Origin: Escherichia coli
GTDB taxonomy: Bacteria; Pseudomonadota; Gammaproteobacteria; Enterobacterales; Enterobacteriaceae
Strand: one strand, 5' to 3'
Assembly (NCBI RefSeq): GCF_017348835.2
Contig: NZ_CP071375.1
DNA length: 64,000 nucleotides
In this document: positions 17,941 to 21,108 of the stretch, piece after piece
Position numbering within the stretch: the stretch's first letter is position 1
Layout: each line of letters begins with the position of its first letter
Notes under the pieces: model-generated
The model's input: the letters and a program-made list of their open reading frames with translations, nothing else
Databases searched by the model: none
Told to the model about the DNA's origin: nothing
Made by a program: the position numbers and the translations under genes

Positions 17941-18246
<306 letters not shown>

Positions 18247-18320
18247 TCAGGCGGCGATTTTAGCATGATCCGCAGATGCTAACGTAATTGTCAGTCAGGG
18301 AGGGGCTGGTACATATATGG

Positions 18321-18342
18321 CAAAAGCCCGGAAAATCCGGGC
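18321..18342 (-). terminator. Putative terminator downstream of the PemK-like ORF
   Basis: Stem gcccgg/ccgggc (18326-18342) with T-run on the minus strand (plus caaaa 18321-18325). Confidence 0.4.
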
Positions 18343-18420
18343 TTCGCAGGTCCCTCAAGGGGAGAAAACTTAGGGCCTCTATGGGCTACAAAGTCATTAT
18401 CAGGGATGGTGATTTTATTG

Positions 18421-18870
18421 TCAATTTATGAGCGATATGGCATTGATTGACTTGATGACCGCCCTCTGTATGTCTGCAACCAACTCATGTGGCAAACATT
18501 GATTAAGATATCCTCTGTAAGTTCTTGCTCTGTTTAATCTGTTTCGACTGACTTGTTGTACCAGGTCGGCTTTGGCCCAACGAATCTGCTGATCAAAGAA
18601 TTGCAGGTCATTGATAATATTACTGGCTATTTCAACATGCATTCCACGATTTAACTTGTCATGGTCGCGAGTGGTTGATAATGGAACGACGATACATGCG
18701 TTGCCATTAATTTTTCCGTTGAGCACGACAACTAACCTGTTTTTTATCATTTCAGGAGGAATGCGGCCATCGTAATACGTGGTGCTGAACGGTCCATTTT
18801 GGCTAACAGGATAGTTACCAAAGTTGCATTCCAGTATTTCACCAACCTTAGGGCTGAAATTAATCGCCAC
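18421..18870 (-). CDS. yifN: PemK/MazF-like toxin-fold protein, 149 aa with GTG start
   Basis: Track ORF 163 aa; strong SD (TAAGGAGAGG) sits 7 nt upstream of an internal GTG, giving MAINFSPKVGEILECNFG...; pattern GEI..V.F, RLVVVL, IVVPLSTT resembles Kid/PemK/MazF; symbol from memory of locus. Confidence 0.5.
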   Translation of the reverse strand: MAINFSPKVGEILECNFGNYPVSQNGPFSTTYYDGRIPPEMIKNRLVVVLNGKINGNACIVVPLSTTRDHDKLNRGMHVEIASNIINDLQFFDQQIRWAKADLVQQVSRNRLNRARTYRGYLNQCLPHELVADIQRAVIKSINAISLIN

Positions 18871-19086
18871 GAGTAAACCTCTCCTTAGTAAACTCTGAAA
18901 AAGTAATAACACAACGTTACGACCCGATATTTCCTAAGTCTAATGGATTCACGATGAACTCCGATTTCGGTTTTCTCTCTCTGATTTAAACATCCGCAGC
19001 CAACCGGTTAGCGGCTTACACGCGGTCACATTCAAATGCGATTCTGCTACAATCCTCCCCCCGTTCGAAGATTGAGCAATACACCT

Positions 19087-21108
19087 ATGCGTCTAAACCC
19101 CGGCCAACAACAAGCTGTCGAATTCGTTACCGGCCCCTGCCTGGTGCTGGCGGGCGCGGGTTCTGGTAAAACTCGTGTTATCACCAATAAAATCGCCCAT
19201 CTGATCCGCGGTTGCGGTTATCAGGCGCGGCACATTGCGGCGGTGACCTTTACTAATAAAGCAGCGCGCGAGATGAAAGAGCGTGTAGGGCAGACGCTGG
19301 GGCGCAAAGAGGCGCGTGGGCTGATGATCTCCACTTTCCATACGTTGGGGCTGGATATCATCAAACGCGAGTATGCGGCGCTTGGGATGAAAGCGAACTT
19401 CTCGTTGTTTGACGATACCGATCAGCTTGCTTTGCTTAAAGAGTTGACCGAGGGGCTGATTGAAGATGACAAAGTTCTCCTGCAACAACTGATTTCGACC
19501 ATCTCTAACTGGAAGAACGATCTCAAAACTCCGGCGCAGGCGGCGGCAGAGGCAAAGGGCGAGCGGGATCGTATTTTTGCCCATTGTTATGGGCTGTATG
19601 ATGCACACCTGAAAGCCTGTAACGTTCTCGACTTCGATGACCTGATTTTATTGCCGACGTTGCTGCTGCAACGCAATGAAGAAGTACGCGAACGCTGGCA
19701 GAACAAAATTCGCTACCTGCTGGTGGATGAGTATCAGGACACCAACACCAGCCAGTATGAACTGGTGAAACTGCTGGTGGGCAGCCGCGCGCGCTTTACC
19801 GTGGTGGGTGACGATGACCAGTCGATCTACTCCTGGCGCGGTGCACGTCCGCAAAACCTGGTGCTGCTGAGTCAGGATTTTCCGGCGCTGAAGGTGATTA
19901 AGCTTGAGCAGAACTATCGCTCTTCCGGGCGTATTCTGAAAGCGGCGAACATCCTGATCGCCAATAACCCGCACGTCTTTGAAAAGCGTCTGTTCTCCGA
20001 ACTGGGTTATGGCGCGGAGCTAAAAGTATTAAGCGCGAATAACGAAGAACATGAGGCTGAGCGCGTTACTGGCGAGCTGATCGCCCATCACTTCGTCAAT
20101 AAAACGCAGTACAAAGATTACGCCATTCTTTATCGCGGTAACCATCAGTCGCGGGTGTTTGAAAAATTCCTGATGCAAAACCGCATCCCGTACAAAATAT
20201 CTGGTGGTACGTCGTTTTTCTCTCGTCCTGAAATCAAGGACTTGCTGGCTTATCTGCGCGTGCTGACTAACCCGGACGATGACAGCGCATTTCTGCGTAT
20301 CGTTAACACGCCGAAGCGAGAGATTGGCCCGGCTACGCTGAAAAAGCTGGGTGAGTGGGCGATGACGCGCAATAAAAGCATGTTTACCGCCAGCTTTGAT
20401 ATGGGCCTGAGTCAGACGCTTAGCGGACGTGGTTATGAAGCATTGACCCGCTTCACTCACTGGTTGGCAGAAATCCAGCGCCTGGCGGAGCGGGAGCCGA
20501 TTGCTGCGGTGCGTGATCTGATCCATGGCATGGATTATGAATCCTGGCTGTACGAAACATCGCCCAGCCCGAAAGCCGCCGAAATGCGCATGAAGAACGT
20601 CAACCAACTGTTTAGCTGGATGACGGAGATGCTGGAAGGCAGCGAACTGGATGAGCCGATGACGCTCACCCAGGTGGTGACGCGCTTTACTTTGCGCGAC
20701 ATGATGGAGCGTGGTGAGAGTGAAGAAGAGCTGGATCAGGTGCAACTGATGACTCTCCACGCGTCGAAAGGGCTGGAGTTTCCTTATGTCTACATGGTCG
20801 GTATGGAAGAAGGGTTTTTGCCGCACCAGAGCAGCATCGATGAAGATAATATCGATGAGGAGCGGCGGCTGGCCTATGTCGGCATTACCCGCGCCCAGAA
20901 GGAATTGACCTTTACGCTGTGTAAAGAACGCCGTCAGTACGGCGAACTGGTGCGCCCGGAGCCGAGCCGCTTTTTGCTGGAGCTGCCGCAGGATGATCTG
21001 ATTTGGGAACAGGAGCGCAAAGTGGTCAGCGCCGAAGAACGGATGCAGAAAGGGCAAAGCCATCTGGCGAATCTGAAAGCGATGATGGCGGCAAAACGAG
21101 GAAAATAA
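19087..21108 (+). CDS. rep: ATP-dependent DNA helicase Rep
   Basis: Start trimmed to [31 protein letters not shown] (673 aa); UvrD/Rep superfamily 1 motifs. Confidence 0.92.

Follow-up and report, generated by a model that had tools for sequence, protein, structure and literature searches.

We analysed a 64,000-nt stretch of the Escherichia coli chromosome (NCBI RefSeq assembly GCF_017348835.2, contig NZ_CP071375.1; the whole stretch is hereafter called the window) that carries yifN, a gene for a protein of the PemK/MazF toxin family. A small RNA (sRNA) gene was found immediately downstream of yifN, on the same strand, and it recurs beside the homologues of yifN. The two genes very probably form an obligate pair. 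By analogy with known systems, we lean towards reading this pair as a type III-like protein-RNA toxin-antitoxin module resting on a toxin of the MazF/PemK family. A further proposal is made more tentatively, namely that yifN and the sRNA found a new family of protein-RNA toxin-antitoxin systems, in which a MazF/PemK RNase would be held by a stand-alone two-hairpin sRNA, a protein antitoxin and a repeat array both being absent.

A small RNA gene downstream of yifN

The sRNA was recovered by comparing the 201 nt between yifN and ppiC with all fetched homologue loci, using blastn. Positions ~35-107 of this query had matches of 75-90% nucleotide identity just downstream of nearly every yifN homologue. 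This level of identity was found where the encoded proteins were only about 45-70% identical and the flanks were unrelated. In a search of the 64-kb window with covariance model (CM) R1, the sRNA was the one and only match (79.1 bits, E 6e-23). Rfam 15, queried with permissive thresholds, did not assign the RNA to any family, and the best overlapping match, rnk_pseudo, reached 19.8 bits (E 1.8), the gathering score being 55. The coordinates of the sRNA gene and of yifN are listed in Table 1.

The sRNA gene is preceded by a sigma-70 promoter of the form TTGACA-17 nt-GATAAT (18424-18396), with 11 of 12 positions matching, which ends 7 nt before the conserved G of the RNA. The promoter was found at a fixed distance from the 5′ end of the RNA in 42 out of 42 non-redundant loci, with a spacer of unconserved sequence, and the overlap between the stop codon and the -35 hexamer recurred in many of the homologous loci. 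From its 5′ end, the RNA is composed of 5′-GUA, hairpin 1, a CCUAAG(U)n spacer, hairpin 2, CCUGC, the terminator stem and a U-rich tail. The E. coli sRNA, including the terminator, folds with -27.8 kcal/mol (z -2.8). The same terminator probably also ends transcripts that read through from yifN.

Covariation was assessed in two alignments. In the MAFFT alignment, 86% of the cells were paired and nine pairs had double changes. None of 500 shuffles equalled this result, and slid controls reached 28-68%. The CM alignment (39 matches), which as a fitted alignment is biased towards its own structure, had 90.8% of its cells paired and compensatory changes in 11 of 16 pairs. Again, none of 500 shuffles equalled it, and the slid controls ranged between 25 and 67%. 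The RNA of a Glaesserella plasmid had the same design with swapped stems, its CGG-CUUAGA-CCG and CGG-CAUAGA-CCG hairpins being followed by the terminator. A long hairpin in the minimum free energy fold of the E. coli sRNA (CCCUAAG/CUUGAGGG) was not conserved in Pseudomonas, and the two short covarying hairpins were preferred to it.

Table 1. Coordinates of yifN, the sRNA gene and their elements in the window
Feature	Position	Strand	Description and basis
yifN coding sequence	18421..18870	-	149 aa; GTG start at 18870, TGA stop at 18423-18421; translation, RefSeq annotation
Shine-Dalgarno sequence of yifN (AAGGAGAGG)	18878..18886	-	7 nt ahead of the GTG; direct sequence reading
sRNA promoter, -35 (TTGACA)	18419..18424	-	yifN stop TGA inside the hexamer; promoter scan
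sRNA promoter, -10 (GATAAT)	18396..18401	-	Promoter scan
sRNA gene	about 18311..18391	-	~75-80 nt; first base 31 nt past the yifN stop; CM match 18317-18391
sRNA hairpin 1	18375..18386	-	GCC/GGC stem, CAUAGA loop; RNAalifold; 96.6% paired, with GC<->CG swaps
sRNA hairpin 2	18351..18363	-	UCCC/GGGA stem, CUUGA loop; CM alignment; double changes in 3 of 4 pairs
sRNA intrinsic terminator	18317..18345	-	9-bp GC-rich stem, AUUUU loop, U-rich tail; 94.6% paired; 6 of 9 pairs compensatory

The sRNA corresponds to a transcript that has already been recorded in K-12. Romero et al. (2014) reported ecr3777(d+), of 79 nt, between ppiC and yifO/yifN, with all of these on the same strand (PMC4681348). It was detected by RNA-seq with a mapped 5′ end and is among the Northern-blot examples of that paper (PMC4681348). 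In the searchable literature, with subscription journals outside the search, no account of the function of yifN or of the sRNA, or of the yifN-RNA pair, was found.

Variant forms of the RNA were also observed. The Roseateles and Rubrivivax versions had three hairpins of the GCC/GGC type instead of two (locus L042, 4535-4642; locus L044, 4535-4641), and the whole sRNA gene was present in two tandem copies in one Herbaspirillum locus (L050, 2980-3221). The consensus sRNA hairpin, GCC-CUUGA-GGC, is the same as the apical hairpin of helix 26 of the 16S rRNA (window 1151-1161, plus strand), which was its sole exact match in the 64-kb window. This form is exact in hairpin 1 of Pseudomonas and hairpin 2 of Roseateles, and hairpin 2 of E. 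coli reads CCC-CUUGA-GGG. The sRNA hairpins might mimic an rRNA target of YifN, going by this likeness in sequence. However, such short matches are within chance expectation and the likeness is therefore a lead only.

Two-way linkage of yifN and the sRNA

All of the 37 genome loci that encode a YifN homologue (L017-L053) matched CM R1, at E values from 1e-26 to 1e-8. The linkage spans Gamma- and Betaproteobacteria, together with plasmids and integrative and conjugative elements (ICEs), and it holds between proteins that are 40-85% identical and in loci with different flanks. Outside E. coli, the position between ppiC and rep was found only in Superficieibacter. The orientation of the two genes also varied. 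In Shewanella, the sRNA gene is convergent with yifN, and in Massilia and Herbaspirillum it is located ~800 nt upstream of yifN on the opposite strand, twice in one case. Since the sRNA had its own promoter in every locus, including the inverted and relocated ones, it is an independent gene and not just the 3′ untranslated region (UTR) of yifN.

The reverse test took 122 metagenome and viral stretches, chosen solely by a 17-mer of the sRNA. Eighteen of them held a true RNA match, and in each of the 18 a yifN open reading frame (ORF) was found immediately upstream. None of the other 104, which were chance matches, had yifN. In the yifN-less E. coli locus L002, the only such locus searched, CM R1 did not detect an sRNA. 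A phage origin of the module did not find support, with only three weak matches in 50,697 phage records and with both of the viral-contig matches to the 17-mer not being true RNA.

Distant PemK-like relatives, both from Alphaproteobacteria and Planctomycetes (28-34% identity) and in the form of P0146, P0178 and P0217, also lacked a protein antitoxin. Their loci (L056, L058, L059, L060, L066 and L189-L191) were inspected by eye and had, downstream of the gene, a stop-overlapping promoter, a 5′ hairpin, a conserved motif of the type (G)CUUnUAAGAC or GCC/GGC, and a terminator. The yifN-RNA arrangement may thus reach beyond the core family.

The YifN protein

An earlier reading of the window from its letters alone (the sequence-only reading) had noted a PemK/MazF-like ORF with a strong Shine-Dalgarno sequence and a GTG start at 18421-18870. 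The translation, the ribosome-binding sequence (AAGGAGAGG), the motifs VGEILECNF, RLVVVL and IVVPLSTT within the 149 residues, the Pfam result and the predicted fold all bear this out. In a hidden Markov model search of Pfam-A, YifN had a significant match to PemK_toxin (PF02452, E 1.5e-10), with residues 38-141 aligned to model positions 15-108 of 109. The homologues of YifN bear the same precomputed PemK_toxin domain. YifN had no match among the NCBIfam profiles, and PADLOC had no match at yifN. Sequence searches of the PDB with YifN, both as a single sequence and as a profile, returned nothing meaningful and did not retrieve the solved MazF structures.

The AlphaFold2 model of YifN (pLDDT 79.6) was compared with the PDB using Foldseek. 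The top 42 matches were solved MazF proteins (E 2e-5 to 7e-3, target template modelling (TM) score 0.59-0.79). The best among them were MazF-mt1, MoxT, S. aureus MazF and B. subtilis MazF (E 2e-5 to 1e-3, TM score 0.66-0.79). The type III toxin CptN followed at rank 43, and CcdB also appeared lower down.

YifN was aligned with Kid and with the MazF proteins of E. coli and B. subtilis, the reference sequences of MazF and Kid having been entered by hand, and residues E40, R45 and R111 were invariant. In this alignment, E40 is equivalent to MazF E24, R45 to MazF R29, B. subtilis MazF R25 and the Kid arginine, and S65 to the catalytic T52/T48. The catalytic residues are therefore intact on comparison with homologues, a point that the sequence-only reading had left to be checked. 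With its predicted MazF fold and the retained catalytic Arg and Ser/Thr, YifN has the appearance of an RNase that is active and has not decayed, as far as can be read from its sequence. It is ~40 aa longer than MazF and Kid, with an insertion of ~20 aa in the beta1-beta2 loop and two more insertions.

The YifN alignment, with members that are 40-85% identical, contains 20 invariant residues. Judged by this conservation, the family is under strong purifying selection and is not degenerate. The suggestion that yifN might be an orphan or degenerate toxin did not find support, given these invariant residues and the conserved sRNA partner downstream. The close family is small, with 30 clusters at E<=1e-30 and 501 at E<=1e-3 in a set of 1.84 billion cluster representatives. 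Homologues of ~150 aa have a patchy distribution, and their name in IMG is “uncharacterized protein YifN (PemK superfamily)”. In Enterobacterales they were found in Superficieibacter, Serratia, Pantoea, Photorhabdus, Xenorhabdus and Chimaeribacter. Other Gammaproteobacteria with homologues were Pseudomonas, Shewanella, Xanthomonas and Legionellaceae, and the Betaproteobacteria were represented by Roseateles, Cupriavidus, Herbaspirillum and Massilia.

Gene neighbourhoods and the search for a protein antitoxin

Clustering covered every ORF of 35 aa or more that lay no further than 1.5 kb from one of 40 yifN homologues. No family of neighbouring ORFs was present in more than three of the 40 loci, and the three-locus cases were instances of synteny within a genus. 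Many of the loci did not have any adjoining small ORF on the strand of yifN. In the window, yifN is separated from the ppiC start at 18222 by 198 nt, the spacing that the sequence-only reading had given, and from the rep ATG by ~216 nt, and no plausible small ORF was found in these flanks on either side. The claim that no antitoxin ORF adjoins yifN thus holds here and in the 40 homologous loci. The same reading had allowed for an overlooked partner antitoxin, encoded so as to overlap the gene. A conserved partner had indeed been missed in the 198-nt spacer, with a promoter that overlaps the yifN stop codon, but it is an RNA gene and not an ORF, and its role as an antitoxin is putative.

Several candidate protein partners were rejected. 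The small upstream ORFs in L028-L030 and L035 were spurious frames of GC-rich sequence. The upstream ORFs in L039, L047 and L050 were mutually unrelated and resembled replication initiators or helix-turn-helix (HTH) proteins by eye, with no profile test made. An 83-aa gene located upstream in some Pseudomonas islands was missing from other islands.

The neighbourhoods of the yifN homologues were mutually unrelated across lineages. In Serratia, the neighbours were lipoprotein and MerR genes, and in Roseateles a WYL regulator. On an E. coli plasmid (IncFIA/IncFIC/IncX1) that carries hly, yifN was flanked by copies of IS91. In the Pseudomonas ICEs and the IncP-7 plasmid pCAR1.2, it was found among small genes of unknown function near an integrase. 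In these Pseudomonas loci (L003-L007 and L016, the latter being pCAR1.2 80041-92487), the module is part of a conserved series of ~15 small genes of unknown function, all on one strand. An orphan N6-methylase, a GNAT acetyltransferase and a Ser/Thr phosphatase are also in the series, which adjoins a tyrosine integrase and is common to pCAR1.2 and to chromosomal islands.

On 6-kb Glaesserella plasmids, yifN is located straight after the primase/Rep gene. In the Glaesserella plasmid p1613, the gap between the primase-type Rep gene and the yifN homologue is 3 nt. A yifN homologue lay directly 3′ of a replication gene in four loci (L014, 520-2357; L039, 22-723; L047, 3406-4642; L050, 3459-4645). 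A Rep-like fragment was seen upstream of yifN in Shewanella, and an HTH replication-like protein in Massilia and Herbaspirillum. The position of yifN beside Rep genes recalls parD (kis-kid), which adjoins the replicon of plasmid R1.

Distribution and decay within E. coli

A survey of 5426 complete E. coli genomes recovered the yifN coding sequence in 4015 and the sRNA also in 4015. The sRNA was without annotation in all 4015 genomes and was present in one copy per genome. The module (about 18239-19080 in the window) is a presence/absence polymorphism, lacking from about 1410 of the 5426 genomes (about 26%). In genomes without it, the gap between ppiC and rep is 86 bp (L002, 4024-4109) and the promoter region of rep is different. 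Taking all replicons together, the module is carried by the chromosome in ~3/4 of E. coli genomes, by IncP-7, IncX/F and small Pasteurellaceae plasmids, and by ICEs.

In K-12 MG1655, yifN is a pseudogene by frameshift. Among 40 evenly sampled E. coli genomes that have yifN, 12 (K-12 derivatives included) carried a frameshifted copy of 449 nt, with a 1-nt deletion. The 449-nt copies are located at 1722-2170 in L001 and in rows H106-H116 and H119 of the survey. A broken yifN with an intact RNA was common, being seen in K-12, in the sampled E. coli genomes with the 449-nt copy, in several gut metagenome contigs, in Serratia (L031) and in Rahnella (L053). None of the loci examined had an intact yifN but no RNA. 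Decay of the protein alone, with the RNA being kept, fits the pattern expected of a toxin and its antitoxin. In 3162 of the 4015 genomes, a 91-nt sRNA segment matched the window copy with ≥99% identity, being in effect the same sequence, and a coding sequence at least 99% identical to the yifN of the window was found in only 177 of them.

The yifN start and the spacer towards ppiC

The chromosomal order at this locus is ilvA-ilvY-ilvC-ppiC-yifN-rep-gppA, and RefSeq labels yifN as a “type II toxin-antitoxin system PemK/MazF family toxin”. The GTG at 18870 is backed as the start codon by the homologues, all of which open with M(A/P)INF. Initiation at another in-frame GTG, at 18912, would lengthen YifN by 14 residues (MLLLFQSLLRRGLL; window 18871-18912, minus strand). 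Ribo-RET data indicate initiation at the annotated yifN start and at one upstream site (bioRxiv 520783). Since the homologues begin at the position of 18870, the 14-residue N-terminal extension is not conserved.

Between the sRNA terminator and ppiC there are two weak promoter-like sites of the form CTGACA-18-GATCAT (18221-18294, minus strand). A published SELEX (systematic evolution of ligands by exponential enrichment) peak of the RpoD holoenzyme in the ppiC-yifO spacer was assigned to the CTGACA-18-GATCAT motif, as a promoter for ppiC. At 130-200 nt upstream lies the promoter of the sRNA, which is much stronger and may add to this peak. It may also feed the transcription of ppiC through read-through.

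Proposed mechanism and alternative explanations

In the mechanism that we favour, the sRNA would bind YifN directly and block its RNase, acting like the RNA antitoxin of a type III system. The short hairpins (two, or three in some lineages) and their conserved single-stranded flanks could fit the two sites of a MazF-type dimer. The sRNA would be produced from its own strong constitutive sigma-70 promoter and, as both transcripts end at one terminator, it is presumably also part of every yifN transcript that reads through. The GTG or TTG starts of the toxin gene in several lineages, combined with the near-consensus promoter of the sRNA, would lead to an excess of RNA. Once transcription stopped, because the plasmid or ICE was lost or a phage shut it off, a labile RNA would decay and free YifN would cleave cellular RNA. 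The module may therefore act as a sensor of transcription shut-off, in plasmid maintenance or phage defence. Here we infer the toxicity of YifN, the binding of RNA to protein, the neutralisation and the lability of the RNA.

Four observations weigh against this mechanism. The 5′ hairpins have only 3-4 bp and are thermodynamically unremarkable (z ~0), which is compatible with an RNA whose shape is set by the bound protein. In one of the distant relatives, P0146, the loops of the RNA are GNRA tetraloops on the same GCC/GGC stems, and a conserved loop sequence thus cannot be the universal recognition element. The sRNA is more conserved than the coding sequence, also where yifN is frameshifted, and it could have a role that is independent of YifN. 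Lastly, the locus departs from the published operational criteria for type III systems in having no repeat array, an RNA downstream of the toxin gene and no terminator between RNA and toxin.

The greater conservation of the RNA, which stays at least 99% identical in E. coli genomes with a frameshifted yifN, would also fit a pair that is a dedicated ribonucleoprotein. The sRNA would then be a regulator or effector, and YifN would bind, process or stabilise it, or would be a non-toxic RNase of narrow specificity. The linkage and covariation would suit any obligate partnership of an RNA with a protein, and the position of yifN directly after Rep or primase genes on small plasmids and mobile elements would also agree with it. 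Nevertheless, YifN has kept the full catalytic signature of MazF, and addiction or defence modules typically have the patchy, mobile spread that is seen here over plasmids, ICEs and indel islands. In addition, it is the protein that becomes a pseudogene and never the RNA, an asymmetry expected for a toxin and its antitoxin, and we consider a ribonucleoprotein of this kind unlikely. Much less probable still is base pairing between the sRNA and the yifN mRNA, with a block of translation or mRNA decay as its outcome, in the manner of a type I system. E. coli has many RNA antitoxins of type I, and the C/U-rich stretch UUUUCUCCCC of the sRNA could in principle pair with a Shine-Dalgarno sequence. 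However, the sRNA is not encoded antisense to yifN, and its conservation is far above that of any part of the mRNA. The duplex energy with the cognate initiation region was -20.5 kcal/mol, compared with -21.1 kcal/mol for non-cognate and -19.8 kcal/mol for shuffled sequences, and the longest Watson-Crick match to the mRNA averaged 6.7 nt for cognate and 7.0 nt for non-cognate pairs.

Along the lines of the sequence-only reading, yifN would be a solitary or degenerate toxin, of type II as RefSeq names it, with an antitoxin that is encoded elsewhere or has been lost. The RNA would then be unrelated to it, as a leader of ppiC or as the 3′ UTR or terminator of yifN; it does lie upstream of ppiC on the same strand, and the RpoD SELEX peak in the spacer was assigned to ppiC. 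This explanation is largely refuted by the two-way linkage and is very improbable. The RNA tracks yifN into dozens of unrelated contexts that are free of ppiC, has a conserved promoter of its own, and remains linked to yifN after inversion or relocation. Furthermore, the YifN family is conserved and not degenerate, and no protein antitoxin adjoined any family member examined. The least probable explanation, in our view, is an element acting in cis at the level of DNA, for instance a site of recombination or attachment, or else an insulator-terminator on a mobile yifN cassette. The module does behave as a mobile indel, which about 26% of E. coli genomes lack, and it sits in the accessory regions of ICEs and plasmids. 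The stable 79-nt transcript of K-12 with its mapped 5′ end, the conserved promoter and terminator, and the covariation that maintains RNA pairing all argue against a DNA element. With one copy per genome, it is not a dispersed repeat, and no inverted or direct repeats were seen flanking the module, though no systematic search for them was made.

If the RNA is an antitoxin, the type III-like module that we favour would represent a fourth, architecturally different family of protein-RNA toxin-antitoxin systems, and the first to be built on classical MazF/PemK toxins. A widespread E. coli gene, which is labelled as a type II toxin despite its lack of an antitoxin, would gain a mechanism. The module would reside in the chromosome of the bacterium that has been studied best, and its sRNA had been detected there but never explained. 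Other “orphan” toxins in current annotation may conceal RNA partners, which could be found with the covariance model, and this bears on how solitary MazF-like toxins are tolerated. As the module is also carried by pCAR1, by hly-bearing IncX/F plasmids and by Glaesserella lnu(C) plasmids, it could matter for plasmid stability and curing.

Comparison with known systems

YifN belongs to the same Pfam family and has the same fold as the toxins of MazEF, PemIK (Kis-Kid) and ChpBIK, and it has the catalytic Arg, the Thr/Ser and the upstream Glu. Unlike in these systems, no MazE/PemI/AbrB-type or other protein antitoxin adjoins yifN in the 40 loci, and YifN forms a small separate clade.

CsrB and RsmZ are sRNAs that sequester the CsrA dimer, and they offer an analogy of mechanism only. 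Like them, the sRNA downstream of yifN has repeated short hairpins with a conserved flank or loop and is proposed to titrate a dimeric RNA-binding protein. However, the protein is unrelated to CsrA and the RNA has no GGA-loop motifs. Moreover, yifN and the sRNA are physically coupled and are mobile together.

The type III systems ToxIN, CptIN and TenpIN resemble the yifN-sRNA module more broadly. In both, an endoribonuclease with a Kid/MazF fold is paired with a small non-coding RNA, the activity of YifN being predicted, and more RNA than toxin is expected to be made. Both are found on plasmids and mobile islands and are patchy on chromosomes. The type III toxins ToxN and CptN are known to have Kid/MazF-like folds (PMC3401426). 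The RNA is genetically coupled to the toxin gene, as the type III criterion of Blower et al. (2012) has it.

Nevertheless, YifN falls within PemK_toxin and not within ToxN, CptN or TenpN, according to Pfam and PADLOC. The conserved residues of TenpN, D28/R36/Y38/R55/H60 (PMC12283969), are not among the invariant residues of YifN. An identity of YifN with TenpN was rejected, as the residues and the locus layout differ and only 24 E. coli tenpN loci have been reported; Photorhabdus carries both genes. Type III loci have a repeat array and a terminator upstream of the toxin gene, whereas yifN has one stand-alone sRNA gene downstream, with a promoter that overlaps its stop codon. Tandem Repeats Finder did not detect any repeats in 18100-19150, and hence no array similar to ToxI, and the region upstream of yifN was not conserved outside Superficieibacter. 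The RNA differs as well, with two small hairpins in place of pseudoknot repeats and with its release not requiring processing by the toxin. The nearest architectural precedent for yifN and its sRNA is the Lactobacillus jensenii toxIN locus, in which the RNA repeats are located downstream of the toxin gene and have their own predicted promoter (PMC3401426).

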